A stretch of DNA of 64,000 bases from an uncultured bacterium (GTDB lineage: Bacteria > Patescibacteriota > Saccharimonadia > Saccharimonadales > 2-12-FULL-41-12), in contig CAWIAU010000001.1 of the NCBI GenBank assembly GCA_963834265.1, forward strand, positions 327,572-391,571. The letters are read 5' to 3'. The notes beneath the pieces are model-generated. The model saw nothing but the letters and a program-made list of their open reading frames with translations. It did no database searches and had not been told where the DNA came from. Below are positions 3,936 through 49,232 of this stretch, piece by piece; positions within the stretch are counted from its first letter, which is position 1, and every line of letters begins with the position of its first letter. The position numbers were made by a program, and so were the translations under genes.

Positions 3936-3959
3936 CAGATCCCCGCTTCCATAATCGAG

Positions 3960-3981
3960 AGACAATTTTTATTGTCTGTTT
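3960..3981 (+). terminator. weak hairpin plus T-rich tail after rplU
   Basis: AGACAAT (3960-3966), TTTT loop, ATTGTCT (3971-3977), followed by GTTTC. The stem is AT-rich and therefore weak. Confidence 0.3.
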
Positions 3982-4044
3982 CGGGTTCAAAACAGTAAAA
4001 ATTGAGAAAATTATAGAGAAAAAGGGATTATCTCAAAATTGCGC

Positions 4045-4081
4045 TGTGGAAAAGATAACTAAAATTCAAAAGTTATCCACA
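4045..4081. promoter_or_regulatory. DnaA-box-like inverted repeat (TGTGGAAAA ... TTATCCACA)
   Basis: A perfect TTATCCACA 9-mer lies at 4073-4081. It faces TGTGGAAAAGATAACT at 4045-4060, and GATAACT/AGTTATC form a perfect 7-bp inverted repeat. Confidence 0.3.
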
Positions 4082-4210
4082 GTATATAATTAACTCAATA
4101 AAAAGTGATGCAAATTTTGCAACAGCTTTTTACTGTTATAATCAGTTTAGATAAAATAACGACCACAGTTTTTGTTGTATAAATAACTATAATATAATTA
4201 CATATTTTAA

Positions 4211-4252
4211 AATAATACTCACATTTTTACGAACAAAAATGTGAGTATTATT
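4211..4252 (+). terminator. perfect 18-bp hairpin (insulator/terminator or 5'-UTR structure) upstream of giant gene 1
   Basis: AATAATACTCACATTTTT (4211-4228), loop ACGAAC, AAAAATGTGAGTATTATT (4235-4252). The 3' flank is U-rich. Confidence 0.4.
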
Positions 4253-4371
4253 TGTATGCGGATTACTCTTGACCATCAGGGGTAGGAGTCGCCATAGTAA
4301 GACTCACTAAGCCAAAAATAAAACTTAGTAAAACAAACCAAACTAAAACCAAAGCAAACAAAACCAAACAA

Positions 4372-7300
4372 ATGTTTTCGCAAATAAAAAATACTTTGAT
4401 TAATATCGTCAGCCCTTTCAGGGGTCTTGCGTTTGGTTTGTTGGTGCTGCTTTCTCTGGTAGGTTCGGTATATAACATTACGCGCGTAAATAATCCTGCC
4501 TCTGTTCAAGCTGCCGCCAGTAGCACGATCAACTTCCAGGCCCGCCTCAGCTCTGCCAGCGGCCAGGTTGTCCCTGACGGCAACTACTTTATCGAATTTA
4601 ATCTGTATACTGCTGCCAGTGGTGGTACAAGTGTCTGGAGAGAAATATATCAGGGCAGTGCTTACACCTGTGCCTTCGGCAGTGCCACCGGTGCCACCAA
4701 CAACAAGGTCAGAGTAGTGAATGGTTATTTGACTGTTAACCTGGGTGAGCTCTGTACTTTCCCGTCTACCATCAACTGGGACCAGGAGCACTGGCTGACC
4801 ATGAACGTCGGCGGAAGTGGTGGTGCGGCACTCTACGACGGCGAGATGACACCACGATTGAAGCTGACCGCGGTGCCTTATGCCTTTGCGGCTGGGCAGC
4901 TGAGGAAACAGACCGGTGGGGCAAACTCCAGTGGAGTACTGGAATTCGCCACACTGACTGCTGATCGCAAGTTCATACTACCTGATACCAACCTGGCAAC
5001 TACCGCCAGTCCCGGCACGGTTTGCGTGTTCAACGGGGCAGTCAGCAACTGTCCGGCGGCAACTGGCTCGGCATCGTATATCCAGAACACTATCGGAGGG
5101 GCAACACCGCAGACAGAGGCGAACTTCAACATTCAGGCATATAACAGCGGTGCGGCAGGTACGGTGGGTGGCCGGATCCGCGGGGCGGCGAATGGGCAGA
5201 CAGCAGATCTATTCCAGCTTCAGGCTACGGACGGCACTATCCTTACTGCCTTTAACTCTTCAGGTCAATTGGTTTTTGGACCGAGTGGTGCGCAGGATAC
5301 TAACCTCTACCGCAGTTCAGCAAATATTCTTAAGACAGATGATGCCCTGGATGTTGGTTCAACTATTACGTCCGGTGATGCTTTGACTGTTTCTAACGGT
5401 ACCTCTGTGGGCAATATTGCTGTCTTTAGTGATGGCGCAACGCCAGTTGTTACCATCGCTGACGGCGGTTCGCTAACAGTTAACCCATCAGTTGCAGCAG
5501 CCACCATCACTGTCGGCGGCACCACCCAGACCGGTACCATAACCCTCGGTCAGGCCACCACGGCTGCCACCCAGCTCCTGAATATCCAGTCGGCTAACGG
5601 CACCGCTTCTACTCAGACTATAACCATCGGCGGCGGCACTTCCACTACTTCCGGCGGCAAGATAGTCAACATAGCCAACGGCACGCCCGGTGCCGGCACT
5701 ACCAACACTGTAGCCATTGGCAACGGCGGTACGACTACCGGTACAGTCGGTGTTACTCTCGGTAGCATAGGCGGAGCCGCCCACACGACTCTTATACAGG
5801 GTGGCAATGGTGCCTCTGCTGTATCTGTCCAGGCTGCGGCGTCGGGTACCATCAGTGTCGGTACCACCAACAATAACGTTATTAACCTCGGTACTGCTGC
5901 TGTTGCCGGCACCATCACTGTCGGCGGCACCACCCAGACCGGTACCATAACCCTCGGTCAGGCCACCACGGCTGCCACCCAGCTCCTGAATATCCAGTCG
6001 GCTAACGGCACCGCTTCTACTCAGACTATAACCATCGGCGGCGGCACTTCCACTACTTCCGGCGGCAAGATAGTCAACATAGCCAACGGCACGCCCGGTG
6101 CCGGCACTACCAACACTGTAGCCATTGGCAACGGCGGTACGACTACCGGTACAGTCGGTGTTACTCTCGGTAGCATAGGCGGAGCCGCCCACACGACTCT
6201 TATACAGGGTGGCAATGGTGCCTCTGCTGTATCTGTCCAGGCTGCGGCGTCGGGTACCATCAGTGTCGGTACCACCAACAATAACGTTATTAACCTCGGT
6301 ACTGCTGCTGTTGCCGGCACCATCACTGTCGGCGGCACCACCCAGACCGGTACCATAACCCTCGGTCAGGCCACCACGGCTGCCACCCAGCTCCTGAATA
6401 TCCAGTCGGCTAACGGCACCGCTTCTACTCAGACTATAACCATCGGCGGCGGCACTTCCACTACTTCCGGCGGCAAGATAGTCAACATAGCCAACGGCAC
6501 GCCCGGTGCCGGCACTACCAACACTGTAGCCATTGGCAACGGCGGTACGACTACCGGTACAGTCGGTGTTACTCTCGGTAGCATAGGCGGAGCCGCCCAC
6601 ACGACTCTTATACAGGGTGGCAATGGTGCCTCTGCTGTATCCATTCAATCAGCTACTTCCGGCACTATCGGCATAGGATCTTCCGGAGTAGCCAACACCG
6701 TCCAGATAGGTAACACCACTGGTGCGGTTACGCAGACTATTAATATAGGCAACAACACTACAGCCAGCTCAACCAATAATGTTGTCATCGGTTCTACAAT
6801 AGCCGGTACTACCACTCTCCAGAACGCTGCTACCATTAGTCTGAACTCTCCTGCCATCAACAGCAATGCCGCCACCCTAGCCTTATTCGCTACTCCGACC
6901 AACATTACACTGGGTGCGGCAGCCGCTACGTTCAACATCGGCCCGGCCGCTGCCGCTGCCGCCACCATCAACATTGCCGGCGGTTCGGGTGCGACTGGTT
7001 GTACGGTCGACGGGGCGACGGGGAATCTGGCTTGTTCCGGTACCATTACCGGCAGTGGCGGCACCGGCTTTTTGGGCAAGAACGTAGCCGACACTTCCAG
7101 CTTTGCCGTAACCGCAGCTAACTACCTCTACGGCTTCACTAACTCATCCAGTGCCGTAGCTTCCGGAGTCCTTAATATAGACAACGGCACTAATACCGGC
7201 AATGCTCTAAGAGTCACTACTGCCGGCAACCCGGGAGCCGGCAACGCTCTAATCTTCGCCAGCAACACCAATGCCAGCCCAAGCGGCAACCTATTAGATC

Positions 7301-10300
7301 TTCAGTCCGGCTCCAGTCCTACGAGTGTGTTTAGTGTGAATGCTGACGGACTCACAACGAGTGCCAGCCAAATAACATCCTATTACGGAGACAGCGGGCA
7401 AATAATTCTCACAAGAAATAATCCCGGAGGAGAAGCAAGAATAGTCCTTGGTAATAGCGGACAAGTTTATATTACTCACACGAATGCCAACGAGCTATCA
7501 GCGACGGGGAGTCTTATAATAGAGGGTGCCAGTTCCAACCTCACCGTCCAAGGCACGGGCACCAGTAATTTTGTTGGCAACGTAGATATAGCCGGCACCC
7601 TTAAGGCCGGAACAAGCGATGCCTTCCAAGTTGGTGCTACAGGAGTAGTTAATTATGTAGCCGGTTCAACCGATACCGCCGCCGCGGTTTGTCGTAATGC
7701 TGCTGGCCAGCTGGCAGGCTGCAACACCACCGGAAACGGTGCCGCGTTCATCCAGGGCGGCAATGCCTTCGCTGCTACTGCTGTACTGGGCACAACCGAT
7801 GCTAATGGTCTGCAGATTATCACTGGCAGCGGCGGTCCAAACGGCCGGGCATACTTCGACACCAGCAACAACTTATTCCTCGGCAATGCCGGAACTACCG
7901 GACTGGCTGCTGCTCCTAACGCCTTCACTATACAAGGCACTGGCAGCAGTGCGGCAGCTGGCGGAGCGGCTGGCGGCAACTTAACAATTAAAGCCGGAGT
8001 AGGAACGGCAACCGGCAGCGGTAGCGCCGGCGGAGTTCTGGCCTTAGCCGGCGGGGCGGCCCAAGGTAACGGAACAGTTGCCCGCAATGGAGGCGATTTA
8101 ACCCTAGATGGCGGTGCATTAATAGGAGCCGGTACAAAAGGCAATGTAATACTGCAGGGTAGCGGGGGCAATGTCGGCATAGGAATAGCCACTCCTGGCG
8201 CAAAGCTTGACGTCAAAGGTATCAATACCTCTAATTCTATCCTAGCTCTAAGCGTCGCTGGTTCGAGCGGTACTGGCTTACAGGTTTCAAACGCCAATAC
8301 TGTGAGTATAGGCGTTGCACCATTTGAGCATACTGCGCTTAGAATAACCAAAGACTTCGGTGCGCTTAACGCTAGTTTTGATGCAGCTATTGGTATTCAA
8401 GCAAATGTAACTGCCTCGGCTAATGCTGACGGCACAAGTGAAGTGGACGGAGTGATTGGTAACGCTATTCTGGCAGGATCAAACGCGCCAGCATACATTA
8501 TAGGAGGAGCTTTTTCTGGTATAAATGCGGCCACTGGCGCCGGCAACGTGCCGTTTGTATATGGGGTTACAGCCGCTACATCATCGACTGGATCCAAGTC
8601 AACAGATGATTTAATAGCAATCAAGGCTAGTAACCGGCTATCTTCCAGCGGTAATGCAACGCGGGCAACTGGCTTGTATGTCGACTCGCCAACAGCATTA
8701 AGCACCGGCCGGATAACCACTAACTACGGCATTTACATCAATACGCAGGCCACTGCAGCTGTTACGGGCAGTGCTTATGGGATTTATCAGCTCGGTGCTA
8801 GTGACCTAAACTATTTCGCGGGCAATGTCGGCTTAGGCGACACGGTTCCATCTACCAAGCTTTCTCTAGGCGGCACAGGCGTATCGAACGGCATAACTCT
8901 AGGTGACGACGCTGCCAGCCCGGTAAATCTTTATAGAAACGCAAACGATGAATTAAAAACCGACGACGCCTTCATTGTAGCCGGTCTCCTGACAGGCCAG
9001 GCCGGCGCTACTGTCTCCGGCGCAGCCATCAACCTCAACGCCTCCTCCAACTTCAACACCAGCATTAACACCGGCAACAGTACCGGTACCATAAGCATCG
9101 GCAATAGTGCTTCAACTGGTTTCACCCTAGAAAATGGTACGGGTACGGGAGTAAATGGAGTCAACCTCTTTAACGGCGCAACGGCACACACGATTCAGCT
9201 GGCTACCGGAGCGGCAGTCCAATCGGTTACTGTTGGTTCTACCAATACCACCAGCAGCCTAACCCTCCAAGCCGGCACCGGGCTCTTAAATATAGGCAAT
9301 GACAACGTAGCCAAGACTACCACCATAAACATCGGGGCTGAAGCTACCGGAGCAGACCTGATTGCTCTCGGATCTTCCAATGCCGGCTCTACGCTTACCT
9401 TGCTGGGCGGAACCGGTGCCGCTGCCATTCAGATAGGCAACAACGCCGCCTCTACCGGTATCCAAATAGGTAATGCCAACGGCGACAAAGACATCATCAT
9501 CGGCAACTCGCAGAACTCAGGTTCTACTATAAGCATAGAAGGCGGCACTGCCGCTACCGGCATACAGATAGGCAACTCAACAGCTGCCCATGGCATCCAG
9601 ATCGGTTCTAATGCCACCGGCGACAATGACATACTGCTGGGTGGCGCCAATGCCGGCTCTACGCTTATCCTAGAAGGCGGTACAGCCGCTAACGCCATCC
9701 AGATAGGCAACGGCGCAACCGCCCACGGCATCCAGATCGGCACCGGTGCTGCTGTTCAGACGCTGGTGATCGGTTCTACCAATACTACTTCAGCCACATC
9801 AATCCAGGGCGGCGTATCCGGCGCCATCAACATAGGCTCAGTCGGCTCATCTACGCTTTCATCTACTACTAATATAGCTAATACTTCCAATGCTACCGGC
9901 ACGCAGACTATTAACCTGGGTTCCAGCGCTAATGCGGCAAACGTTATTAACCTAACAGCTGGTTCCACCGGAGGAGTTAAGCTCAATACCCAGCTGGCTG
10001 CAACCGCTAACTCCCAGTACTTATGCCGCGACAGTTCGACCGCTATTCTTACAGCTTGTAACACCACCGGAAACGGTGCCGCGTTCATCCAGGGCGGCAA
10101 TGCCTTCGCTGCTACTGCTGTACTGGGCACAACCGATGCTAATGGTCTGCAGATTATCACTGGCAGCGGCGGTCCAAACGGCCGGGCATACTTCGACACC
10201 AGCAACAACTTATTTTTCGGCAATGCCGACAGCAGCGGCGTTAACACGGCTCCAACTGCGTTTAGCGTACGTGGTACGGGCAGCAACAACGTTGCTAATG

Positions 10301-13300
10301 CCGGCGGTGCGCTAACTGTCCAGGGCGGAGCCGGTGCTTCGACTACCACCGGTAGTGCCGGCGGCGCTATTACCATCCAAGGTGGTACCGCTGGCGGCAG
10401 CAACGCTAATAACGGCGGTGCCCTGAGCTTTACTGGTGGCGTGGCTTCAGCTACCGGTGTCGGCGGCGCCATAACTATCCTTACCGGTGCCGGCGGCGCT
10501 ACGTCCGGAGCTTCCGGTGCTCTCAGCTTACAGTCTGGCTCTACTACTAACGGTAACAGCGGTCTGGTTACCCTTCAGTCCGGCAGTTCTACTACCGGCA
10601 CCGCTGGTAACGTTGCCATAGATGTCGGTACTTCCAGTACCGGTACTTCAGCTATTAACATCGGTACTTCCACCAATTCGGCCGCTAAGACAATTAGTAT
10701 TGGCGGCTCCAATGGCACGGGTATAATAACGCTAGGTTCCTCCAGCGCTGCTCAGTCTGTCCTGATCTCCAACGGCACCGGTGCCTCAACAGTCAGTATT
10801 GCCAACGCCACTGTGTCCGGCGTAACTCTTAATATAGCCGGAGCTGCCAATACATCTGCCAACACCATCAACATCGCCAACGGAGCCAGCGCTGCCAACA
10901 CCAACGTCAGCATACTGTCCGGTGTCGGTACAGCCGGTGCTTCTACCTTGCTACTAGGCAACAACACCAGAGTTACCCAGATAGACCTCGGTAACATTGC
11001 AGCAGCGGCAGCCCGTACCATCAATGTCGGTACCGGTTCCAACGCTGTCGGCATCGATACGCTCAACATCGGCACCGGTGCTACCAGCGTAGCTGGTGGC
11101 AAGACTATTAATATCGGCAACACGGCACCAACCGGTGCCGGTACCAACCTCATCTCTATTGGCTCTACTACCAACGCTTCTACCACTAGCATCCAGGGTG
11201 GCACGGGCTCAACAGCTGTTAACATCCAGGCCGGTGCCGGTGGTAACATCAATGTCGGTACGGCTAGTAACAATGTTATTGCCATCGGCACTGCTTCTGT
11301 TGCCGGCACCATCACTGTCGGCGGCACGGGCACTACCGGCCAGATAACTGTCGGCCAGTCGACAGCTACCAATACCATCTCGATTGGCTCAGCCGCCGGC
11401 AACACCTTTACCCAGACCATTAACATCGGAACCAGCGCCACCGCTGGCTCAACTACTACTCTTAATATTGGTTCGACCGTCGCCGGTATTACTACTTTGC
11501 AGAGTGCGGGGGGAGTCAGAATCACCACTTTGGGTGCCGCTGACACCGACTCATATAATATTTGTCGGGATGCCTCTACCACCCAGCTGACTGCCTGCGA
11601 CGCTAACAACGCCACTGGACGAGCTTTCCTAAATGGCCTGAATACTTTCAGTGGTACGGCTACCCTCGGTACCAACAGCACCGGCGGCGGCGCCCTGCAA
11701 TTCCAGACCAACAGCGTGGCCCGGGCTATCTTTGACACTTCTAACAACTTATACCTGGGTAATGCCGACAGCAGCGGCGTTAACACGGCTCCGAATGCGT
11801 TTACAATAAGTGGTACGGGCAGCAGTGCAGCTGCAGGTGGAGCTGCTGGTGGTAACCTGACCATTAAAGCAGGTCTCGGTACCGCTACGGGTACGGGCAG
11901 TGCCGGTGGCGTATTAGCCCTTGCCGGTGGTGCGGCCCAAGGAGACGGAACCGTTAACCGCAACGGCGGCAACCTGACCTTAGATGGCGGCGCCAAAGTA
12001 GGTGCCGGCGGGACAATCGGCAATGTAATTTTGCAAGGCTCAGGAGGTAACGTAGGAATCGGAGTAACACCCATCACCACTGCTGGCAGCGGGGTATTAC
12101 AAGTTGGCGCTGCCTCCTCTACAACGGCAGGCCAGGGTATAAGCTTCGGCGGTGATACAGTAGCGAACCTTTACCGCTCCGCCGCGGGTACTCTCAAAAC
12201 AGACGGTGCTTTCCATATCCAAAACGACTCTACTACTGCTTTCCAGGTTCTGGAAGCGGACGGGGGAGCATTCTTTTCGCTCGATAGTATCAATAACTCC
12301 CTAAGGCTTGTTAGTAATACCGGCGGCGAAATAGTAGAAATCAGTAATGCTACCGGATTGTCGGTAGTATCTGACGCTAATACGGCATGGACAAACCTGG
12401 GAGCGAATACCGGTGCTGCTGCCGATATCCTGAATCTATATGATGAAAACGACGTTTTAGTAGGTTCTATTACAAAAACCGGTGACGCTCTCTTTAAATC
12501 ATCTACTAACTCCGCCACTGCATTGAGGATCCAGCAGGCAGGGGCAGGCGGCACGCTGTTTACTGCTGATACGTCTGCAATGAAAGTTAGTATCACAGGT
12601 ACTACTGACGCATCCTTGAGTGCTGGCGGCTATTTGCAGATCGGTACTACTGCCGCTACTAACCTGATATTTGACGACAATGAGATTATGGCGCGCAATA
12701 ATGGCGCAATATCTAACCTAAATCTCCAGCAAGACGGAGGCGGTCTATACGTAGGCTTCAGCACAGCAGCAACACTAGACATTAATAATGGACAATTTAC
12801 AGTAGGAACCACTGGTTCAGTAATTTCAAAAAATTCAAGTGATTCAACCACTGCCTTCCAGATACAGCGCGCCGGCGCAGGCGGCAACTTGTTTAGAGTG
12901 GATACTCTGAATTCTATGGTCAGTGTTGGTTCGGCCGCGCCTGCTACCAGCTTGCTGACTGTCGGCACCAACTCTACTACTTCAGCTGCGGGCGGTATTA
13001 GTTTCGGTACCGATACGAGTCTGTATCGCTCCGCGGCGAACTCGCTCAATACAGGCGGACTTTTCACAGCAAGCGGCAACATCACTTCATATACTAATGG
13101 AACAACATACTCCAGCTTGCAATCTAGTGGAGATGTTTACGCGACGGGTCGTTTAGATGTTGCTGATCTTACTACTGAAGAAGTAAATATTGGAGCCGTA
13201 GGCACCGGTAGCAAGTCCGGCATAGTCTTTGGCGCTGGCGGTGCTAACCCAGTTAACCTCTATCGTCCTTCCGCCGATGTCCTAATGACTGACGATAATT

Positions 13301-14574: not shown

Positions 14575-14576
14575 CA

Positions 14577-14774: not shown

Positions 14775-14913
14775 AGCCTATAAAATCTGGATAATGAACA
14801 GATGATTAATTATTATTCTCACCAATCGTTTTCTTCAATTTTTAAGTTTACAGGGACGGGGCCTGGAAACAAGTTTAAAATAAGCGTTTTACTTGGTAAG
14901 ATGTCTGTAGGAT

Positions 14914-18110: not shown

Positions 18111-18117
18111 AGTAAAA

Positions 18118-18864: not shown

Positions 18865-18894
18865 AAGTGATATACGGTAGTATACAATGGTTTT

Positions 18895-34194: not shown

Positions 34195-34217
34195 AGGTAA
34201 AACCAGTATAATTTAGC

Positions 34218-40300: not shown

Positions 40301-43300
40301 GACCATCAGCGGCGTCAACCTCTTCCTCCAGAGCGCCGACGCCTCCTTCGCCGGCCTGGTCAACACCGGCACTCAGACTTTTGCCGGTGCCAAGACGTTC
40401 ACCGGCAACGCTATCCTGCAGGGCGATACGACCATCGGCGACGCCGGTACTGATCTCCTGACTATTAGCGCGACTATACAGGGAGCTAACCCGTTAGTCT
40501 TTGAAGGCGCCACAGCCGACGGCTTCGAAACCACTCTGGCTATAGCAGATCCGACGGCTGACGTTACCTACCGGTTCGCGTCGACTACCACCGGTACCTA
40601 CGACATTTGTACTACTACCGGCAACTGCGTCGGCGCTGGAGGCGGAACGGCTCCCAATAACGGCGAGTACATTACCTACAGTGCTAATGCCACCTTGTCA
40701 GCCGAGCGGGTACTGACCGGCGGCAGTAACATCAGTGCCATAGATCTCGGTACGCCCGGTCAGGCTATTATTAATGTCGCTAGCGCCCCAACCTTCACCG
40801 GCCTGCTAAGTGCCAACGGCGGCTTAACCGTTGAAGCGGGGGATACCTTTACCGTCAACGGTGACGCCTTCACCGATCTGACCGGCACCGGCCTGACCAT
40901 TACCGGCAACGCCCTGGCCAGCACTCTCGGCACCTCCGTCGATCTGAACAGTGCCGAAGTAACCAACACCCTGCAGCTTGGTAACGGCGGCACCGGCGCC
41001 ACCACCTCCCAGGCGGCGATTAACAATATCTCCCAGCTGACCACGGAAGGTGATCTCTTATTCAGAAATGCTACCAACTCTACCCGGCTGGCCCGGGGCA
41101 CCAACGGCCAGTGCCTGACTTCCAATGCCACGACTGTCGTCTGGGGTACCTGCCAGCCCGGCGGTTCCGGCGTCACAACCATCGGCGCCCTAGACGGCGG
41201 CACGGCCAACGCCAACGGCGCGACCATCAGCGGCGTCAACCTCTTCCTCCAGAGCGCCGACGCCTCCTTCGCCGGCCTGGTCAACACCGGCACTCAGACT
41301 TTTGCCGGTGCCAAGACGTTCACCGGCAACGCTATCCTGCAGGGCGATACGACCATCGGCGACGCCGGTACTGATCTCCTGACTATTAGCGCGACTATAC
41401 AGGGAGCTAACCCGTTAGTCTTTGAAGGCGCCACAGCCGACGGCTTCGAAACCACTCTGGCTATAGCAGATCCGACGGCTGACGTTACCTACCGGTTCGC
41501 GTCGACTACCACCGGTACCTACGACATTTGTACTACTACCGGCAACTGCGTCGGCGCTGGAGGCGGAACGGCTCCCAATAACGGCGAGTACATTACCTAC
41601 AGTGCTAATGCCACCTTGTCAGCCGAGCGGGTACTGACCGGCGGCAGTAACATCAGTGCCATAGATCTCGGTACGCCCGGTCAGGCTATTATTAATGTCG
41701 CTAGCGCCCCAACCTTCACCGGCCTGCTAAGTGCCAACGGCGGCTTAACCGTTGAAGCGGGGGATACCTTTACCGTCAACGGTGACGCCTTCACCGATCT
41801 GACCGGCACCGGCCTGACCATTACCGGCAACGCCCTGGCCAGCACTCTCGGCACCTCCGTCGATCTGAACAGTGCCGAAGTAACCAACACCCTGCAGCTT
41901 GGTAACGGCGGCACCGGCGCCACCACCTCCCAGGCGGCGATTAACAATATCTCCCAGCTGACCACGGAAGGTGATCTCTTATTCAGAAATGCTACCAACT
42001 CTACCCGGCTGGCCCGGGGCACCAACGGCCAGTGCCTGACTTCCAATGCCACGACTGTCGTCTGGGGTACCTGCCAGCCCGGCGGTTCCGGCGTCACAAC
42101 CATCGGCGCCCTAGACGGCGGCACGGCCAACGCCAACGGCGCGACCATCAGCGGCGTCAACCTCTTCCTCCAGAGCGCCGACGCCTCCTTCGCCGGCCTG
42201 GTCAACACCGGCACTCAGACTTTTGCCGGTGCCAAGACGTTCACCGGCAACGCTATCCTGCAGGGCGATACGACCATCGGCGACGCCGGTACTGATCTCC
42301 TGACTATTAGCGCGACTATACAGGGAGCTAACCCGTTAGTCTTTGAAGGCGCCACAGCCGACGGCTTCGAAACCACTCTGGCTATAGCAGATCCGACGGC
42401 TGACGTTACCTACCGGTTCGCGTCGACTACCACCGGTACCTACGACATTTGTACTACTACCGGCAACTGCGTCGGCGCTGGAGGCGGAACGGCTCCCAAT
42501 AACGGCGAGTACATTACCTACAGTGCTAATGCCACCTTGTCAGCCGAGCGGGTACTGACCGGCGGCAGTAACATCAGTGCCATAGATCTCGGTACGCCCG
42601 GTCAGGCTATTATTAATGTCGCTAGCGCCCCAACCTTCACCGGCCTGCTAAGTGCCAACGGCGGCTTAACCGTTGAAGCGGGGGATACCTTTACCGTCAA
42701 CGGTGACGCCTTCACCGATCTGACCGGCACCGGCCTGACCATTACCGGCAACGCCCTGGCCAGCACTCTCGGCACCTCCGTCGATCTGAACAGTGCCGAA
42801 GTAACCAACACCCTGCAGCTTGGTAACGGCGGCACCGGCGCCACCACCTCCCAGGCGGCGATTAACAATATCTCCCAGCTGACCACGGAAGGTGATCTCT
42901 TATTCAGAAATGCTACCAACTCTACCCGGCTGGCCCGGGGCACCAACGGCCAGTGCCTGACTTCCAATGCCACGACTGTCGTCTGGGGTACCTGCCAGCC
43001 CGGCGGTTCCGGCGTCACAACCATCGGCGCCCTAGACGGCGGCACGGCCAACGCCAACGGCGCGACCATCAGCGGCGTCAACCTCTTCCTCCAGAGCGCC
43101 GACGCCTCCTTCGCCGGCCTGGTCAACACCGGCACTCAGACTTTTGCCGGTGCCAAGACGTTCACCGGCAACGCTATCCTGCAGGGCGATACGACCATCG
43201 GCGACGCCGGTACTGATCTCCTGACTATTAGCGCGACTATACAGGGAGCTAACCCGTTAGTCTTTGAAGGCGCCACAGCCGACGGCTTCGAAACCACTCT

Positions 43301-46300
43301 GGCTATAGCAGATCCGACGGCTGACGTTACCTACCGGTTCGCGTCGACTACCACCGGTACCTACGACATTTGTACTACTACCGGCAACTGCGTCGGCGCT
43401 GGAGGCGGAACGGCTCCCAATAACGGCGAGTACATTACCTACAGTGCTAATGCCACCTTGTCAGCCGAGCGGGTACTGACCGGCGGCAGTAACATCAGTG
43501 CCATAGATCTCGGTACGCCCGGTCAGGCTATTATTAATGTCGCTAGCGCCCCAACCTTCACCGGCCTGCTAAGTGCCAACGGCGGCTTAACCGTTGAAGC
43601 GGGGGATACCTTTACCGTCAACGGTGACGCCTTCACCGATCTGACCGGCACCGGCCTGACCATTACCGGCAACGCCCTGGCCAGCACTCTCGGCACCTCC
43701 GTCGATCTGAACAGTGCCGAAGTAACCAACACCCTGCAGCTTGGTAACGGCGGCACCGGCGCCACCACCTCCCAGGCGGCGATTAACAATATCTCCCAGC
43801 TGACCACGGAAGGTGATCTCTTATTCAGAAATGCTACCAACTCTACCCGGCTGGCCCGGGGCACCAACGGCCAGTGCCTGACTTCCAATGCCACGACTGT
43901 CGTCTGGGGTACCTGCCAGCCCGGCGGTTCCGGCGTCACAACCATCGGCGCCCTAGACGGCGGCACGGCCAACGCCAACGGCGCGACCATCAGCGGCGTC
44001 AACCTCTTCCTCCAGAGCGCCGACGCCTCCTTCGCCGGCCTGGTCAACACCGGCACTCAGACTTTTGCCGGTGCCAAGACGTTCACCGGTCTCCTGACCG
44101 GCCAGGCCGGCGCTACTGTCTCCGGCGCAGCCATCAATCTCAATGCTTCCTCCAACTTTGATACCAACATCAATACCGGTACCAGTACGGGAACGGTCAG
44201 TATTGGTAATGCTTCAAATGCTAACAATACCGTCACTCTTCAGGCGGGAGCCACCGGAGGTATCAACCTTAACTCTGCTTCCGTCAATAGCAATGCCGCA
44301 ACTTTGGCCCTCTTCGCTAGTCCGACTAGCATTACCTTGGGAGCGGCTGCAGCTACGTTCAACATCGGACCAGCGGGTGCTAGTGCGGCCACGATCGCTA
44401 TTGCTGGCGGCTCTGGGGCTACTGGCTGTACCGTAGACGGAGCTACCGGCAACCTAGTCTGTACCGGAACAATTACCAGTACTGCCGGTACGGCCGCCGT
44501 TGGTTACTTCACTCGCTCAGGTACTACACTCCAACCAGCTACAGCAGGCGATAGCATTCAAACTTCTGGTAACTTAGCTACTACGGGTACAGGGACAATC
44601 ACTGCCGCCGGCATCCTAAACGCCAGTGCCACTGGCAAAACTGCAATCACAGTCGCTGATTCAGGAGCTCAGAACTCAGGAATTACTATAGGTGGCGACA
44701 CCAACCTCTATCGCAGTGCCGCTGATACGCTTCGTACTGACGACAATTTCAAAATCCAAACACTTACGAACTCCACCACCGCCTTCCAGATCCAGAATGC
44801 TAATGCTTCATCTAATCTCTTTACCGCTGATACTGTCAACAGTCGGATCGGTATAGGAACGGCCACCCCCACGAAACTATTGGATATTGCATATGGCAAC
44901 CTCAACTTTACTACAGTTCCGGCTCCGGGTGCGCTAACTGCCACAGTTAGTGCTACCGCCGGTAACCTAAACGGCACATATAAATACTGGGTTACTTATG
45001 TGACAGAAGACGGTGAGACTAACCTGGGTACGGCCTCCGCTACCGTCTCTCCCGCAAGCAAGCAGGTTAACCTCACCAACATTCCTGTCAGCGGGCTCTC
45101 CCGAGTGACCGCTCGCAAGATTTACCGTACTGATGGGGTTATTAACTATAATGCTTATTTCCTAACTACTCTTAGCGACAATACCACCACGGTATATACG
45201 GATAACATTGCTGACGGTTCGTTGCCACCGACCCTTTATCAAATCCGGGGCAATACTACCAGTGGCCGACTGTTTGTTGACAATGACCAAGTCTTTTATT
45301 CTGAACCCACTACAATAAGCCTCGGTGTCGGTAGGGGTGCGCTAGGTGTTAACCTCGGTCGGCACAACGTGGCAGTTGGGCCGAACGCTCTGGGGCAAAA
45401 TACCACCGGCGAATTTAACAGTGCCGTAGGCTCGGGTGCCCTCTACGGAACCACCACCGGTTACTATAACAATGCCTTTGGCTATCAGTCGCTGCAGAAT
45501 AACACCGTTGGCTACGAAAACAGTGCCTACGGCTATGGTTCGATGATAAATAATGTCAGCGGTTTCCAGAATACCGCCATCGGTAACTATACCCTCGTCA
45601 ACACCACCGGCTCCAAAAATACCGCTCTTGGCTACAAAGCAGGCGAAACTTCTGTCGGTGCCAACGCCAACACCACTGGCACCGGTAACACATTTGTTGG
45701 TCACAACTCTGGTCCAGGTGTTGTTTCTGCCTCTAGCCTTCAGAATGCCACTGCCATAGGCATTAACTCTGTTGTTTCCCAAAATGACTCATTAATTCTC
45801 GGTTGCATCAATGGACTAAATGGCTGTACAGCTACTACAAAAATCGGTATTGCAGATGCCGTACCCTCAACCTTACTATCTCTTGGTGGCACCGGCGTAG
45901 CAAATGGTATAACGCTTGGAGATGACGCGGCTCAATCAGTAAACCTTTATCAGGCTGGCAGCAATTTATTGCAAACAGATGACGATTTTATTGTAGGAGG
46001 CGATGATTTTTACCTTGGCTCAACAAGTGGGATCCGTCTAAGCCGCGAAAATAATGATGAACTTAGGCTTTATACTTCTGCTGGCGAGCAACTTCGTATT
46101 AATGCAACCAATATATACGCACTGAATAATAATATTCTTGCTAATAACGCTGGCACGGGCTTCGCTAAAGTGGCTGTCGCGACTGACGATACTAATAAAG
46201 TGGGTGTTGCAATCCGAGGTGAAGCTGGCCAGACTGCCGACCTATTGCAAGTTCAAAACAGTGCTGGAACAGTATTAGGCGGCTTTAGCGCCCTCGGCCG

Positions 46301-48200
46301 GCTTGGGGTAGGTACGGCGCCGAATTCTAGCCCAAGTAACGACGGTATCCTGCTGGGAGGTAGCAGCGATTATTCACGCATAACTAACCTTGGCTATGGT
46401 ACATCAATAGATTTTGGCTATGTTCCCGCAACCGGTATGGCGGCCGGCGATATGAGCCTTATTGCTGGCAATGTCGGTACCTCCATGAGCGTGGGTGTCT
46501 CCTTAAACTACACGGGAGCCTCCTTCAAAGTTATTCAAAATGCTGCATCGGCCACTACTCCGGTAACAATTATAAAAGGCGGAGCTACGCCAGGTGGGGG
46601 CAGCGACCTCTTACAGTTCCAAAATTCCGCCGGTACTATCCTCACTGCTTTTCAGACGGACGGCAAGCTGGTTTTTGGTCCTTCCGGTAACCAAGATACA
46701 AACTTATATCGTTCAAACTCAAACATTCTCAAAACCGATGATTCACTTACAGTTGCTGGTGGACTGACAGTTAGCAGTTTGGCTAATTGTACTAGCGTTC
46801 AGACAAATGCCAATGGTGACTTTTCTTGCGGAAGTCCTGCTCTTCCTGATACAGCCGCTTTTGTCGACTCTACTTCTGATACGCTTAACGACAGTAGCCA
46901 ATCCCTCTGGGACGGTACCCAGCCTAACATTACGCCTACGGCTAGTTCACAAACAGTGCTTGTATCGGTATCTATCAAGATAGATTCGGCCGGCACAGAT
47001 GACGAAGTCAACCGATTCCAGATATATCGCAGCACTACTGGCTCCGATGCTACCTGTTCCAGCACTGCCGTAGGTGGGACGTTTGGTGCCCGTACTACGG
47101 ATAATGCGAATCAATTCGACAACGCCACGGTTACATTCCTAGATAGTCCGGGCGTTGCTAGCCAAGTTCGCTATACGGTTTGTGAAAGCACAGAATCAAC
47201 AGCTGCAGGTGCCGTCAATAATACTACTCCCCAAATTGATTTCAGCCTTGTAGCACTTGGCGCTGACTTGGCTGAGAACTATTACACAACCGACAATAGC
47301 CTTTCAGCCGGACATGTGGTCAGCCTGGATACAGGACTTCCTGCCGGAGTAAAGAAAAGTGGTAGCGCTTACGATCAAGCCATTGGAGTAGTTTCAACAA
47401 CGCCTGGATATGTCCTTGATGACCGAATAGGCGAAGGATTTGGCCGTCCGGTACCTATCGCGCTTGCGGGACGCGTGCCGGTAAAAGTTTCGGACGAGGG
47501 CGGAGCGATACGAGCGGGTGATTATCTAGTAGCTTCATCTACGCCCGGAGTAGCTATGAAAGCCACCCAGCCAGGCCGAATTATTGGTACAGCCATGAGT
47601 GACTTTAGTGGATCTGGCGAAGGGCAGGTAATGATATTTGTACACACCGGGTACGCAGACCCCAATAGCAATGCTGGGATTAACGATATACAAGGTAATT
47701 CTACTATATCCGGAAATCTGGATGTTCTGGGAATTGCTACCTTTGAATCACTAAATGTAAGTGGTCATACAACTTTGGAGAGCCTGAGCGTGACTGGTAA
47801 TGTGTCCGTTGGAGGCAATCTGACCGTTGCGGGAGACACAAGTTTCAAGGGTAATATAATCGTCGAGGGACATATTGTTTCTGCTGGCAATGCACCAGTA
47901 GCAATGGTCCTAGGTGATAATTCAGCAGGTGCAGTAATTACGATAGAGGGCAACGATACGGCAGGGACTATCACGATTAAAACGAGTACTGGCAGCATAA
48001 TTTCTGGCGAGTTGGCTAAAGTAATCTTTAATAAGCCATTTAGTAGTGCGCCTAGAATAATTCTTTCAGGACAAGACGCTAAAACCCTTGACGCCAAAAT
48101 ATTCCCTAGTCAGAAGACAGCTGACAAATTTGTACTAAAAACAGCGGAGGTGTTGCCCGCTAACACTATAATAACGCTGGACTATTTTATCCTAGAATAG
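34353..48200 (+). CDS. giant surface fibre-like repeat protein 3 (4615 aa), type II anchored
   Basis: An uninterrupted 13.8-kb ORF with a ~75-aa N-terminal tail followed by a TM segment (aa ~75-97). It carries 747-bp and 921-bp tandem arrays, a YadA-head-like 14-residue repeat region and a C-terminal module shared with giant 2. Confidence 0.9.
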   Translation: MKTDSAFGSNVKHDVSGNVIRADIYESVSDLTTQKYPETDSLEVHDLNQNTRYSYPQDDAQISTKQLMAISPKRAVLIATIITGIVLVITVFSSILLGRNSISDQNRHQAPSQQIDIKVTNNESTPPELTGAQESLLVSGDIITKGNFKVSSKGYITILSPDNLTADQAYTLPDSSGVFCLSSNNCSYGGLAELTKAQADIAGLQNSLGQIVIPSAQTFPAVPPSSLINNQRGAVSIQGTSNQISVTTGSGVITLATPQDLATVSSPGFASLFLSGNLTVNGNLTLPLNCSTSANGGTLTTTAGGQVICADDDGGAGAAINGSGTVGTLAVFTAAQTIASLTGPSDGQILLGNGTTPTFTTIGGDATVSGAGTVTIQANAVALGVDTTGNYVADITAGNGISVTGGAAEGSTPTVSVVYGSAANTAVQGNTVLTCPAGSGNLTGGGNNVTLGAGGSCGALSVVGSPMFSGTLAVQGATITIGTAAQQGTLILNDGSSNTGSLAVSALGQDTLYTLPDAGGGTATICLSTGNCLGGGAGGANTALSNLTSVAINTSLLSGSATIDLGSQTNPFRDLYLGGTGTNNFRITGTATVPRTITIPDATGDICLSSGNCAGVGGTGDIVGNGTSGTIARFSGTKSIVDSIITELGNTITVTGTLNATTALQTAGTTRITSGGVLQNVSNADASNFFTGGALSVARGGTGTGSTPTNGQLLIGNGTGYTLATLASGDSTVTITNGSGTIDLSVPLAGTCAACVALQGATPGIAQTGHINITGTIIAGFFSGNGTSLNNLAAGAITTGTLNDTRLSGNVSLLGQTIGLAELEADSVNGSKVVDGSIGNIDLTNPGLSVSAGGGLINGGLVNLGASVTLNIGAGDGITVNADDVAVDATVCRTTGNCLGGPGGGASVSLSNLASVAINTSLLSGSATIDLGSNTNPFRDLYVGGTATNNIRITGTSAGARVYTLPDVGSAADFCLSTGNCVGGAGGAPNSAAYLTIGNNATLTGERAITAGTNLSAVDGGADGAYTLNVVNNPTFSGLITAQAGISVTAGQTLTVNGDAFTDLTGTGLTITGGALQASLGTSVDLTTEVTGTLPVTGGGTGQTSYTDGQLLIGNSVGNTLSKATLTAGVGVNIVNGNGTITISSPGSGTCAACANTSLSNLASVAINTSLLSGSAIIDLGSNTNPFRDLYVGGTATNNIRITGTSAGARVYTLPDVGSAADFCLSTGNCVGGAGGAPNSAAYLTIGNNATLTGERAITAGTNLSAVDGGADGAYTLNVVNNPTFSGLITAQAGISVTAGQTLTVNGDAFTDLTGTGLTITGGALQASLGTSVDLTTEVTGTLPVTGGGTGQTSYTDGQLLIGNSVGNTLSKATLTAGVGVNIVNGNGTITISSPGSGTCAACANTSLSNLASVAINTSLLSGSAIIDLGSNTNPFRDLYVGGTATNNIRITGTSAGARVYTLPDVGSAADFCLSTGNCVGGAGGAPNSAAYLTIGNNATLTGERAITAGTNLSAVDGGADGAYTLNVVNNPTFSGLITAQAGISVTAGQTLTVNGDAFTDLTGTGLTITGNALASTLGTSVDLNSAEVTNTLQLGNGGTGATTSQAAINNISQLTTEGDLLFRNATNSTRLARGTNGQCLTSNATTVVWGTCQPGGSGVTTIGALDGGTANANGATISGVNLFLQSADASFAGLVNTGTQTFAGAKTFTGNAILQGDTTIGDAGTDLLTISATIQGANPLVFEGATADGFETTLAIADPTADVTYRFASTTTGTYDICTTTGNCVGAGGGTAPNNGEYITYSANATLSAERVLTGGSNISAIDLGTPGQAIINVASAPTFTGLLSANGGLTVEAGDTFTVNGDAFTDLTGTGLTITGNALASTLGTSVDLNSAEVTNTLQLGNGGTGATTSQAAINNISQLTTEGDLLFRNATNSTRLARGTNGQCLTSNATTVVWGTCQPGGSGVTTIGALDGGTANANGATISGVNLFLQSADASFAGLVNTGTQTFAGAKTFTGNAILQGDTTIGDAGTDLLTISATIQGANPLVFEGATADGFETTLAIADPTADVTYRFASTTTGTYDICTTTGNCVGAGGGTAPNNGEYITYSANATLSAERVLTGGSNISAIDLGTPGQAIINVASAPTFTGLLSANGGLTVEAGDTFTVNGDAFTDLTGTGLTITGNALASTLGTSVDLNSAEVTNTLQLGNGGTGATTSQAAINNISQLTTEGDLLFRNATNSTRLARGTNGQCLTSNATTVVWGTCQPGGSGVTTIGALDGGTANANGATISGVNLFLQSADASFAGLVNTGTQTFAGAKTFTGNAILQGDTTIGDAGTDLLTISATIQGANPLVFEGATADGFETTLAIADPTADVTYRFASTTTGTYDICTTTGNCVGAGGGTAPNNGEYITYSANATLSAERVLTGGSNISAIDLGTPGQAIINVASAPTFTGLLSANGGLTVEAGDTFTVNGDAFTDLTGTGLTITGNALASTLGTSVDLNSAEVTNTLQLGNGGTGATTSQAAINNISQLTTEGDLLFRNATNSTRLARGTNGQCLTSNATTVVWGTCQPGGSGVTTIGALDGGTANANGATISGVNLFLQSADASFAGLVNTGTQTFAGAKTFTGNAILQGDTTIGDAGTDLLTISATIQGANPLVFEGATADGFETTLAIADPTADVTYRFASTTTGTYDICTTTGNCVGAGGGTAPNNGEYITYSANATLSAERVLTGGSNISAIDLGTPGQAIINVASAPTFTGLLSANGGLTVEAGDTFTVNGDAFTDLTGTGLTITGNALASTLGTSVDLNSAEVTNTLQLGNGGTGATTSQAAINNISQLTTEGDLLFRNATNSTRLARGTNGQCLTSNATTVVWGTCQPGGSGVTTIGALDGGTANANGATISGVNLFLQSADASFAGLVNTGTQTFAGAKTFTGNAILQGDTTIGDAGTDLLTISATIQGANPLVFEGATADGFETTLAIADPTADVTYRFASTTTGTYDICTTTGNCVGAGGGTAPNNGEYITYSANATLSAERVLTGGSNISAIDLGTPGQAIINVASAPTFTGLLSANGGLTVEAGDTFTVNGDAFTDLTGTGLTITGNALASTLGTSVDLNSAEVTNTLQLGNGGTGATTSQAAINNISQLTTEGDLLFRNATNSTRLARGTNGQCLTSNATTVVWGTCQPGGSGVTTIGALDGGTANANGATISGVNLFLQSADASFAGLVNTGTQTFAGAKTFTGLLTGQAGATVSGAAINLNASSNFDTNINTGTSTGTVSIGNASNANNTVTLQAGATGGINLNSASVNSNAATLALFASPTSITLGAAAATFNIGPAGASAATIAIAGGSGATGCTVDGATGNLVCTGTITSTAGTAAVGYFTRSGTTLQPATAGDSIQTSGNLATTGTGTITAAGILNASATGKTAITVADSGAQNSGITIGGDTNLYRSAADTLRTDDNFKIQTLTNSTTAFQIQNANASSNLFTADTVNSRIGIGTATPTKLLDIAYGNLNFTTVPAPGALTATVSATAGNLNGTYKYWVTYVTEDGETNLGTASATVSPASKQVNLTNIPVSGLSRVTARKIYRTDGVINYNAYFLTTLSDNTTTVYTDNIADGSLPPTLYQIRGNTTSGRLFVDNDQVFYSEPTTISLGVGRGALGVNLGRHNVAVGPNALGQNTTGEFNSAVGSGALYGTTTGYYNNAFGYQSLQNNTVGYENSAYGYGSMINNVSGFQNTAIGNYTLVNTTGSKNTALGYKAGETSVGANANTTGTGNTFVGHNSGPGVVSASSLQNATAIGINSVVSQNDSLILGCINGLNGCTATTKIGIADAVPSTLLSLGGTGVANGITLGDDAAQSVNLYQAGSNLLQTDDDFIVGGDDFYLGSTSGIRLSRENNDELRLYTSAGEQLRINATNIYALNNNILANNAGTGFAKVAVATDDTNKVGVAIRGEAGQTADLLQVQNSAGTVLGGFSALGRLGVGTAPNSSPSNDGILLGGSSDYSRITNLGYGTSIDFGYVPATGMAAGDMSLIAGNVGTSMSVGVSLNYTGASFKVIQNAASATTPVTIIKGGATPGGGSDLLQFQNSAGTILTAFQTDGKLVFGPSGNQDTNLYRSNSNILKTDDSLTVAGGLTVSSLANCTSVQTNANGDFSCGSPALPDTAAFVDSTSDTLNDSSQSLWDGTQPNITPTASSQTVLVSVSIKIDSAGTDDEVNRFQIYRSTTGSDATCSSTAVGGTFGARTTDNANQFDNATVTFLDSPGVASQVRYTVCESTESTAAGAVNNTTPQIDFSLVALGADLAENYYTTDNSLSAGHVVSLDTGLPAGVKKSGSAYDQAIGVVSTTPGYVLDDRIGEGFGRPVPIALAGRVPVKVSDEGGAIRAGDYLVASSTPGVAMKATQPGRIIGTAMSDFSGSGEGQVMIFVHTGYADPNSNAGINDIQGNSTISGNLDVLGIATFESLNVSGHTTLESLSVTGNVSVGGNLTVAGDTSFKGNIIVEGHIVSAGNAPVAMVLGDNSAGAVITIEGNDTAGTITIKTSTGSIISGELAKVIFNKPFSSAPRIILSGQDAKTLDAKIFPSQKTADKFVLKTAEVLPANTIITLDYFILE
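34654..35303 (+). repeat. 650-bp dispersed repeat, identical to 20437..21086
   Basis: See the partner copy. The offset between copies is 14217 bp. Confidence 0.9.
37092..39065 (+). repeat. tandem repeat, 747-bp (249-aa) unit, ~2.6 copies (one SNP at 37145)
   Basis: Unit phase at 37087, 37834 and 38581. Antisense ORFs 37667..37906 and 38414..38653 are identical. Confidence 0.9.
39009..44089 (+). repeat. tandem repeat, 921-bp (307-aa) unit, ~5.5 copies, no differences seen
   Basis: Unit starts at 39009, 39930, 40851, 41772, 42693 and 43614. Five identical 177-aa antisense ORFs are spaced 921 bp apart. Confidence 0.9.
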
Positions 48201-49232
48201 GTGAAATAGAAAATACAGATAACTCTCAGAGTAACCTATAGCTGGACTTTTACAGAAGTATAACCAGAATATCTGGTAAATTTATTGGGGCCGACAATAT
48301 AGTCTATGTAAAATTGATTATGACTAGGTAAATATGTAAGTTTAGCTATACCACCCAAACTGTTACCATACGAATATGCCTTCTCCGGCTCGGAATATTT
48401 GGAATACCGGTGCCTGTGTCCAAGTGGCATATTGCGATTTTATTACTGTGATTAGTAATAGCGGATAATATTTATATTTGACCCGAAATTGAGCGAATAT
48501 TGTTGCCAAAGACATTTGGTATTGGTGAGTTCAACATTTTCATCTCCTATAACGTCCCGTCTGCCACTTATTGGTATGTCCCTTGTTTGATTCCCCGCAA
48601 GAAAAAGCTTCCGAGGGCAGTACCTGTATATAGTTGATCCGCTGCTGCCGGCAACGCTATCCACGTACTGCTTATGACGGCTTGGAGCTCAGAGGACGAT
48701 GGATCAAAAGCTTTAATATTTTATTTCAATTGTTCTGGCCTGGTTATTAAGGCACATATGGCAGGTCCTGTAATAATTCTTTATCGATTGTTTATACTTT
48801 TGATCTGGGTTATTAATCTAAAAAAATTTGGATAAAACGGCAATAACTACAGTTAGAGCTGAAATAATGGCCAACTAATTAAAAAAGGATACAAGCTGTT
48901 TGTACTCCCCCACATTCAATGTATACAATACATTCCAGAACCATAAATATAACCATACAAAAAAGAGCAACAAATTCCCGCTCTAAGGATATATCATATA
49001 AATAAGCAACAATTACAAATCGGGCAGGCTTAAGGCCACTAAGTAGTGCAAACAACACAACAAGCTCCGGTTTTCAGTCTCGTCAACCATTTACTGATGT
49101 ATTCACTAGCTAAAACGTGGGTAATGGTGTTAGTAAAATAAGAGTAGTATTATACGGCTAGTAACAGATACGTTCAATGATTTACGTCACAACTATTTCG
49201 TGCTAGGATGAGGGCTATAGGATGTACTGACA

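Follow-up and report, generated by a model that had tools for sequence, protein, structure and literature searches.

Results

Three giant genes between rplU and parA

The window analysed here is a 64,000-nucleotide (nt) stretch of contig CAWIAU010000001.1 (assembly GCA_963834265.1) from an uncultured bacterium of the Saccharimonadales. It contains an island of three giant open reading frames (ORFs), G1, G2 and G3, that probably encode cell-surface fibres; all coordinates below are window positions. The three ORFs lie on the plus strand: G1 at 4372-14574 (3400 amino acids, aa), G2 at 20067-33200 (4377 aa) and G3 at 34353-48200 (4615 aa). They are uninterrupted, and their summed extent is 37.2 kb between rplU (3627-3935), which forms the left flank together with a gene for a class I aminoacyl-tRNA synthetase, and parA (49233-50003), which is followed by parB on the right. 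The giants alone make up about 5% of the 720-kb contig.

An earlier note on this DNA, made without database searches, had listed the three ORFs and their lengths between rplU and parAB and had described their products as rich in G, T, A, S and N, poor in charged residues in the centre, and mosaic, with common punctuation motifs, Cys loops and cassettes. All of this was confirmed. The five residues account for about 60% of each giant, and the composition per 200-aa bin gives 0-10% D/E/K/R in the central parts. A motif search found NLYRS..L.TD[DGS] in all three proteins, G[R][VI]G[IL]GT..P..[KR]L.[VI] in G2 and RIGIGT in G3; Cys loops of the forms C[LT][ST].GNC and GTC[AG][AS]C are also found in the giants. 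Full-length scans of the island proteins against Pfam, NCBIfam and PHROG returned almost nothing, that is, sub-threshold scraps (BppL_N, SH3_2, TBP-TOTE). Likewise, sequence searches of the PDB with the G3 C-terminus as a single sequence, with G2 3600-4090 and with G3 3250-4303 gave no relevant match.

The C-terminal module of G2 and G3

Judged by sequence profile, modelled fold and motif alike, G2 and G3 end in a module homologous to the intramolecular chaperone of the phage phi29 pre-neck appendage protein gp12. In G3 the body ends in a pre-cleavage C-terminal region, after which the chaperone module follows. The module of G2 (32337-33197, plus strand) extends from the predicted cleavage site at Asp4091 (GA/DVAEKY) to the end of the protein and comprises 287 aa, and that of G3 (47265-48197, plus strand) extends from Asp4305 (GA/DLAENY) and comprises 311 aa. 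Hence, the predicted scissile bonds are Ala4090-Asp4091 in G2 and Ala4304-Asp4305 in G3. In phi29 the mature gp12 ends at residue 691, the C-terminal domain being cut off after folding (PMC6542822, PMC3357383, PMC4690869).

With the last 516 residues of G3 as query, 385 relatives were found, mostly hypothetical proteins of Patescibacteria, the best of them labelled Candidatus Saccharimonadales or Saccharibacteria. The relatives have in common a core of about 135 aa with the succession G-A-D-[LV]-A-E-x-Y ... GVVST.PG ... ALAGRVPVKV ... GDYL.SSS.PG.AMKA. Asp16 and Glu19 of this core are invariant in all 36 aligned homologues (alignment A1). The two residues have D-x-x-E spacing and correspond to D4091 and E4094 in G2 and to D4305 and E4308 in G3. 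In gp12 this Asp/Glu pair reportedly has a catalytic role (Xiang et al. 2009; MEROPS family G2).

The matching Pfam family is PF11962, Peptidase_G2 ('IMC autoproteolytic cleavage domain', phi29 pre-neck appendage gp12), with a gathering cut-off of 25 bits. Three homologues (P0052, P0082 and P0089) score above it with 25.9-33.1 bits, and 16 of the 36 alignment members match at E<=1; the full-length giants have no match to this family at E<=0.1. The best PDB match of the alignment profile is 3gqh/3gqk, the cleaved C-terminal fragment of gp12 (E = 0.0037). This alignment opens at residue 1 of 3gqh, where 'DFAEYF' faces 'DLAENY'.

An AlphaFold2 model of G3 4290-4615 (pLDDT 90) shows a core like that of phi29 gp12, then a short beta-helix and, at the end, a beta-sandwich. 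In a Foldseek search the best PDB match of this model was 3suc, pre-mature phi29 gp12 (E = 7.5e-4, 173 columns), and phage capsid cement and decoration proteins came next; lactococcal phage receptor-binding proteins also matched. The BFVD matches, at 26-36% identity, are labelled preneck appendage, major tropism determinant N-terminal domain and tail fiber-like. The earlier note had proposed trimeric fibres; this proposal gains real support, because trimeric tail spikes and fibres of phages are the only proteins from which the gp12-type module is known.

Spread of the module in phages and genomes

At least 533 loci in IMG/VR carry the module. All 44 that were inspected have it at the end of a long ORF, starting with D[LVFM][AG]E some 125 residues ahead of the stop codon; these ORFs have a median length of 730 aa, several exceeding 3,400 aa. 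The module is thus a common terminus of phage tail fibres. A set of bacterial and archaeal genomes with one genome per species yielded a further 574 loci, mostly from Patescibacteria, and the following details refer to the 80 best of them. Most belong to Saccharibacteria and to Microgenomates-type and Parcubacteria-type lineages. The D.[AGS]E motif is present in all but one (79/80), and many of the ORFs have an N-terminal hydrophobic segment. When complete, the ORFs have a median length of 1,879 aa, and at least 13 continue beyond the 10-kb flank (>3,300 aa).

Several loci (L088, L089, L094, L101, L111 and others, including contigs of 1.3-1.6 Mb) are titled uncultured Gammaproteobacteria, Pseudomonadales or Bdellovibrionales. 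Either these are mislabelled metagenome-assembled genomes or the module has spread more widely outside Patescibacteria.

N-terminal anchors of G2 and G3

According to the earlier note, G2 and G3 start with a polar tail containing NV.RADIY.SV that precedes one transmembrane (TM) helix, an arrangement predicting type II anchoring. These features were found, and type II anchoring is consistent with the sequence. The motif NV.RADIY.SV is located at residue 18 of both proteins. In G2 a polar tail of 93 aa precedes the TM helix (aa ~94-118, nt 20346-20420), and in G3 the tail has 72 aa (helix at aa ~73-97, nt 34569-34643); in each case it is a single strong hydrophobic helix. The anchor region of this type recurs at 53-61% identity in L081 and L082.

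Both cytoplasmic tails also contain S-[LM]-E-V-[HR]-D at aa 41-47 (SMEVRDP in G2, SLEVHDL in G3) and are otherwise divergent. SLEVHD is present in the JGI homologue (L081:10001-11722) as well. The motif could be a docking or sorting signal.

Tandem cassettes and support by an independent assembly

Large parts of the giants are tandem arrays, all read on the plus strand. G1 contains 2.8 copies of a 408-nt (136-aa) unit at 5503-6642 that are 100% identical. The 288-aa cassettes of G2 occupy 21843-23252 and 23991-27563, as 4.1 copies of 864 nt plus a second block, and are nucleotide-perfect. In G3, 249-aa cassettes at 37077-39065 (747 nt, 2.7 copies, 9 mismatches between the first two) are followed by nucleotide-perfect 307-aa cassettes at 39009-44090 (921 nt, 5.5 copies). 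The GC content is 55-64% in the tandem arrays versus 38-48% elsewhere. A further block of short repeats lies at 45360-45722 (aa 3670-3790 of G3); the earlier note had called the repeats YadA-like with 14 residues, which does not hold, since the period is 17 residues and there is no YadA match in Pfam. Length variability of the giants, which the note had also predicted, is supported by the perfect cassettes and by G1-type orthologues of at least 1741, of 3527 and of 6044 aa in relatives.

The giants also have sequence in common with one another. Residues 125-350 of G2 and 102-327 of G3 are 99% identical (226 codons with 7 mismatches), and an exact run of 650 nt is common to G2 (20437-21086) and G3 (34644-35293) just past the TM helices. 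This identity, next to cytoplasmic tails that differ, suggests a recent gene conversion of the membrane-proximal module. One cassette is found in both G1 (783-902) and G3 (3275-3384) with 66% identity.

The Logan assembly of run ERR12037361, a short-read run from the same sample, allowed an independent comparison. The accessory proteins have 100% identical matches on a 720,390-bp contig in NCBI and ENA and also occur on short contigs of the Logan assembly, which begin and end inside the giants. This assembly contains the non-repeat parts, including the two ends of every giant and all the genes between them. It thus provides independent support for the gene order and for the giants' ends.

G1, the propeller protein A908 and small membrane proteins

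The N-terminus of G1 has a hydrophobic signal or anchor segment (aa 9-33), after which a possible A-x-A cleavage site occurs (...VQA/AAS); the N-terminal domain shares 60% identity with the G1-type giant in L082. A conserved C-terminal domain was delimited by tblastn at 13819-14571 (aa 3150-3400, plus strand). Its roughly 220 C-terminal residues are 56% identical to L163, 56% to L165, 50% to L164 and 39% to L082. It is kept in all four relatives that have a G1-type giant, while the body ranges over 3.5-fold, from about 1.7 to 6 thousand residues.

Downstream of G1 lies A908 (14914-17640, plus strand), a predicted exported accessory protein of 908 aa. Its AlphaFold2 model (pLDDT 80) shows a signal or anchor helix, a beta-sandwich (aa ~58-265), a 7-bladed propeller (~290-720) and a C-terminal beta-sandwich; the N-terminal sandwich is one common to MshQ/DUF6701-type proteins. 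In the earlier note A908 was a delta-60-like propeller protein. The propeller fold is confirmed by the model, but a delta-60 relationship is not supported, as Pfam and NCBIfam gave no match at E<=0.1. The fold search of the PDB returned generic WD40-type propellers alone, from which no function could be assigned. We found 22 full-length orthologues with 46-68% identity, and in L082, L163, L164 and L165 the A908 homologue lies directly downstream of the G1-type giant. At several distant Patescibacteria loci carrying the C-terminal module (L100, L101, L102, L127, L128, L136 and L141) a segment 33-40% identical to part of A908 is located a few kb downstream of the module-bearing giant, which hints at a wider association of such giants with A908-like proteins.

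Directly downstream of A908, at 17814-18085 on the plus strand, is a degenerate, frame-shifted copy of its last ~90 residues. The copy is represented by two tblastn high-scoring segment pairs in different frames (50% and 42% identity) and looks like the remnant of a duplication or a pseudogene.

Two small genes follow, whose products the earlier note had described as AT-rich single-pass proteins; each indeed has one TM-like segment. The first, on the minus strand at 18118-18864, encodes a small protein that spans the membrane once and has a body resembling a coiled coil. Its maximal ORF (337 aa) extends to 19131, but it probably has only 248 aa, since its homologues in L082, L163, L164 and L165 (242-261 aa, 23-44% identity) align from residue ~97 or ~125 of that ORF. 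The second, p288 (18895-19761, plus strand), is a lysine-rich single-pass membrane protein with a maximal ORF of 288 aa, annotated in the source record as 236 aa from 19051; a homologue with 37% identity occupies the same position in L163. Because the C-terminal domain of G1 always travels with A908 and the small coiled-coil membrane protein, these two are probably its partners.

A274, a membrane protein with part of the module fold

Between G2 and G3 lies A274 (33370-34194, plus strand; 274 aa), which has a signal peptide, a beta-domain and two C-terminal TM helices. The beta-domain is 30% identical to G3 4306-4411. The earlier note had it carry the C-terminal module of the giants on a membrane anchor; this applies to the N-terminal subdomain of the module alone. 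A274 has no equivalent of the conserved Asp and Glu (ITRGY in place of DLAENY), and it is a member of a separate, large family with 859 cluster representatives, 596 of them at E<=1e-10 and nearly all 255-300 aa long. A scan of the genome collection with A274 as sole query gave no match. A weak Pfam match is to XM1_gp53_minor_capsid. The two TM helices form a hairpin (aa ~200-274) with an invariant G-R-N-P loop and a conserved Glu in helix 1. This hairpin resembles that of F-type ATPase c subunits with their R-N/Q-P loop; Pfam gave no match of this kind. In L082 a homologue of A274 is located directly upstream of a G2/G3-type giant, and at the P0222 locus directly upstream of an untyped ORF of 2365 aa.

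Related islands

Comparable islands were found in other assemblies. L082 (GCA_051005235.1) shows the order G1-type giant, A908 homologue, small minus-strand membrane protein, A274 homologue and N-terminus of a G2-type giant. In L163 (ENA ERZ25039476 contig_7400, 1.19 Mb) a giant of 3,527 aa is followed by an A908 homologue (45%), a minus-strand protein of 248 aa (44%), the p288 homologue (37%) and, at the G2/G3 position, a giant of 4,334 aa with collagen and Peptidase_S74 matches in Pfam. In L164 (GCA_034680565.1) the genes for a giant, an A908 homologue, a minus-strand protein of 261 aa and a protein of 931 aa precede parA (63% identity), parB, signal peptidase S26, LCP and HtrA; here the flank is the same, and G2, A274 and G3 are absent. 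L165 (GCA_964460855.1) encodes a giant of 6,044 aa with CBM_4_9 and Kelch matches, an A908 homologue and a 242-aa minus-strand protein. Finally, the P0222 locus on a JGI contig has the aminoacyl-tRNA synthetase and rplU, followed by an A274 homologue, a giant of 2,365 aa, a protein of 204 aa and a further giant.

Since the order of G1 tip, A908 and small membrane protein is constant in the relatives and the remainder varies, the comparison identifies these three as a stable core and the rest of the rplU-parA interval as a hotspot. By the same comparison, the hotspot exchanges giants, their lengths and even the type of chaperone (G2 versus S74).

The 4,334-aa giant of L163 (19187-22688) also has MerR/HTH_17 matches, which are unexpected for a surface fibre. 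These may be spurious or the result of a fused gene call.

Discussion

Proposed assembly and use of the fibres

On balance we favour the view that the giants of the rplU-parA island are cell-surface fibres whose construction follows that of bacteriophage tail fibres. In this proposal G2 and G3 would each start with a short tail in the cytoplasm, followed by one TM helix as signal anchor (N-in, C-out), and the ectodomain of about 4,200 residues would be exported by Sec. By analogy to phi29 gp12, the gp12-type (MEROPS G2-like) module would bring three chains into register, and folding of the fibre would proceed from the C-terminus to the membrane. The Asp/Glu pair would then cut the chain before Asp4091 in G2 or Asp4305 in G3. 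The C-terminal piece of 287 or 311 residues would either be shed, baring the pre-cut region as the distal tip, or stay bound. G1 would be a second type of fibre without the module. The length of the fibres may be tuned by gain and loss of the nucleotide-identical cassettes of 136-307 residues through recombination between identical copies.

The tip of Bdellovibrio Bd2133 measures 150 Å for ~370 residues (PMC10769870). Scaled from this value, an ectodomain of ~4,200 residues would extend over about 170 nm, a rough estimate, and the fibres might measure roughly 150-200 nm. By analogy to phage fibres and to the MAT fibres of Bdellovibrio, reaching and binding the surface of a host bacterium appears plausible as the most likely use. 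The earlier note had seen no dedicated secretion, sortase or assembly gene and had expected export and anchoring to be novel or Sec/TM-based. With the gp12-type chaperone at the C-terminus, the assembly device would be part of the protein itself, and export would require only Sec and the signal anchor.

Several observations weigh against this proposal. The C-terminal fragment of G3 itself reaches 14.9 bits (E = 0.017) with Peptidase_G2 and thus stays below the cut-off of 25; the PDB profile match of the module is marginal (E = 0.0037); and the Foldseek TM-score is low (0.28), because only the core overlaps. No match in Pfam, NCBIfam, PHROG or the PDB sequences was obtained for a beta-helical fibre fold of the bodies. 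G1 has no C-terminal chaperone module, and the number of copies in the perfect arrays is taken from the long assembly. Moreover, the piece after the Asp, 287-311 aa here, has a median length of 474 aa in the genome loci, that is, in Patescibacteria, versus ~125 aa in phages, and in some homologues this post-core piece has H-type-lectin-like (H_lectin), K1-lyase_C or SH3_3 matches in Pfam. To discard such domains would be odd.

Owing to the long piece after the Asp in Patescibacteria, a different reading of the same fibres is kept open, in which the module is no disposable chaperone. Either it would not be cleaved or it would be cleaved and remain bound; the terminal beta-helix and beta-sandwich would then be a working, receptor-binding tip, and the core a knob resembling decoration proteins. 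The domain matches in the homologues fit this reading, as does a faint H_lectin match in the tail of G3 itself (E = 0.22). The fold of the module also matches phage capsid cement and decoration proteins, which do not cleave, and lactococcal phage receptor-binding proteins, and A274 uses the fold without the catalytic residues. However, the Asp/Glu pair at the cleavage position of gp12 is invariant in 36/36 homologues, with D.[AGS]E in 79/80 genome loci and 44/44 phage loci, which is hard to explain without catalysis, and in the tblastn matches the module always begins exactly at the D..E motif. We regard a retained tip as possible, but would not expect it.

That the giants make up a general coat or spacer layer of the cell surface, be it S-layer-like, protective or a biofilm matrix, and are not organelles of host attachment, seems unlikely to us. 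Their extreme, charge-poor composition of G, T, A, S and N and their identical cassettes are indeed typical of structural spacers, no carbohydrate- or protein-binding domain reached threshold in the window, and the adhesins of Southlakia epibionticum that are essential by transposon sequencing are of another kind, namely VCBS, dockerin and FN3 proteins (PMC10633639). On the other hand, the closest analogues, phage fibres and the MAT fibres of Bdellovibrio (PMC10769870), are all devices for target recognition, and giants of relatives have CBM_4_9, Kelch, NosD/beta-helix and Peptidase_S74 matches. In addition, the giants turn over among relatives with constant flanks, as would be expected of specificity determinants. 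That the locus is what remains of a prophage or of a tailocin fibre locus, or that the giant ORFs are assembly artefacts of repeats, is very improbable, even though the terminal module derives from phages, the perfect repeats extend over 3.5-5 kb and the short-read assembly breaks in the giants. Window scans found no gene for a capsid, tail or baseplate protein, an integrase or a tRNA; G2 and G3 carry membrane anchors at their N-termini; the ORFs stay open over 10-14 kb; position and gene order are the same in at least five independent assemblies; and the independent assembly contains the non-repeat parts, both ends of the giants and the intergenic genes. A prophage remnant was therefore rejected, given the lack of other phage genes and the conserved chromosomal position among housekeeping genes, with the same rplU or parAB flanks in relatives.

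Beyond the proposal of tail-fibre-like surface fibres itself, a wider scenario may be considered, which we put forward as speculative and rather doubtful. Patescibacteria would have domesticated phage tail-fibre genes into a membrane-anchored giant-fibre organelle and kept the G2-type module in a working tip. A274, with its catalytically dead fold and the hairpin with GRNP loop, would be a docking or assembly partner, and the trio of G1 tip, propeller protein and coiled-coil protein a second anchoring complex. Expansion of cassettes and swaps of tips and chaperones at the rplU-parA hotspot would set host reach and binding.

Comparison with known systems

The closest molecular relative of the module is phi29 gp12 (PF11962; 3GQ7, 3GQH, 3SUC). 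Common to both are the C-terminal module starting with D-x-A-E, the same beta-rich core fold and the beta-rich end of a fibre or spike. In contrast, gp12 is a soluble protein of 854 aa and part of the virion, whereas G2 and G3 have 4,400-4,600 aa, are chromosomally encoded and are predicted to be membrane-anchored. Their piece after the Asp is about twice as long, has a different ending (beta-helix and beta-sandwich) and lies below the Pfam threshold.

The closest biological analogue is the MAT (mosaic adhesive trimer) superfamily of Bdellovibrio bacteriovorus (PMC10769870). Its members are cellular, mosaic fibres resembling phage tail fibres in a bacterium that lives on other bacteria, with multiple paralogues that have swapped parts; some have a self-cleaving C-terminal chaperone and others have different tips. 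MAT proteins have ~1,000 aa, a signal peptide, a conserved beta-rich N-terminal domain of ~130 aa and an S74 (SDxxxK) chaperone (PMC10769870). The giants are 3-4.5 times longer and belong to another phylum, and their locus contains the genes of A274 and A908. The TM signal anchor with cytoplasmic tail of G2 and G3 sets them apart from the MAT descriptions, as does the G2-type (D..E) module; Pfam gave no Peptidase_S74 match at E<=0.1 for the giants of the window. In phage fibres and spikes of the S74 type, such as T5 pb1 and the K1F endosialidase, a C-terminal chaperone likewise sets the trimer register and is then removed by autoproteolysis (PMC4690869), but its fold and catalytic residues differ (Ser/Lys versus Asp/Glu).

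Like YadA-family autotransporters and BclA/C1q filaments, the giants would be long, repetitive and probably trimeric surface fibres, with repeats of the N-x-A-x-G type in G3 and beta-sandwiches near the tip. However, the G3 repeat has a period of 17 and not 14, the C-terminus of G2 and G3 resembles gp12, and their anchor is an N-terminal helix. Patescibacteria are not known to have an outer membrane that could hold a beta-barrel anchor. Pfam models of the YadA head or anchor, C1q and collagen did not match the giants of the window at E<=0.1. Consequently, the YadA-like and C1q-like labels were rejected for want of model support, and with them the likeness to C1q/TNF jelly rolls or BclA that the earlier note had drawn.

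The giant proteins of Omnitrophota (bioRxiv 10.1101/2023.11.21.568195) are also very large, envelope-associated and from ultra-small, host-dependent bacteria. They exceed 30,000 aa and have many TM helices and SecA-DEAD or dockerin-type domains but no tail-fibre chaperone (bioRxiv 10.1101/2023.11.21.568195); because of this different architecture they were rejected as counterparts.

Literature searches returned no description of this family in Saccharibacteria or Patescibacteria, including the membrane-anchored giant form with the G2 chaperone. Cryo-electron tomography of Mycosynbacter has described pili and a lance or tube, not such fibres. The system had been put forward as undescribed, which is true of the G2-chaperone giant form in Patescibacteria as far as the searches went; the concept of phage-like cellular fibres is not new, because the Bdellovibrio MAT fibres already show it (PMC10769870). 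What is gained over MAT is breadth, a different type of chaperone and the giant, membrane-anchored form. For finding and holding a host, the known players in Patescibacteria are only type IV pili and a few adhesins (PMC10633639, PMC12206443). If the giants are host-recognition fibres, they would provide a handle on host range that can be read from sequence, and would show cells taking over the receptor-binding hardware of phages wholesale. The predicted Ala-Asp self-cleavage offers a simple biochemical entry point.

Intergenic regions and right flank

Scans for promoters and terminators in the intergenic regions gave no excess over shuffled controls, and neither a tRNA nor an Rfam match was found in the window. 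The gap between G3 and parA (48201-49232) is 1 kb long and AT-rich (~40% GC). It contains no convincing ORF, tRNA, Rfam family, parS-like site or repeats, and may represent a promoter, a region close to an origin or a gene that has decayed.

Beyond parB follow a signal peptidase S26, an LCP protein and HtrA. In the window the block occupies 49233-55546, with S26 on the minus strand after parA and parB, and with a protein of 250 aa between LCP (LytR_cpsA_psr) and HtrA. Whether or not by coincidence, the giant exported proteins are encoded next to a signal peptidase and a quality-control protease. The block is kept in L164 (10259-16238).

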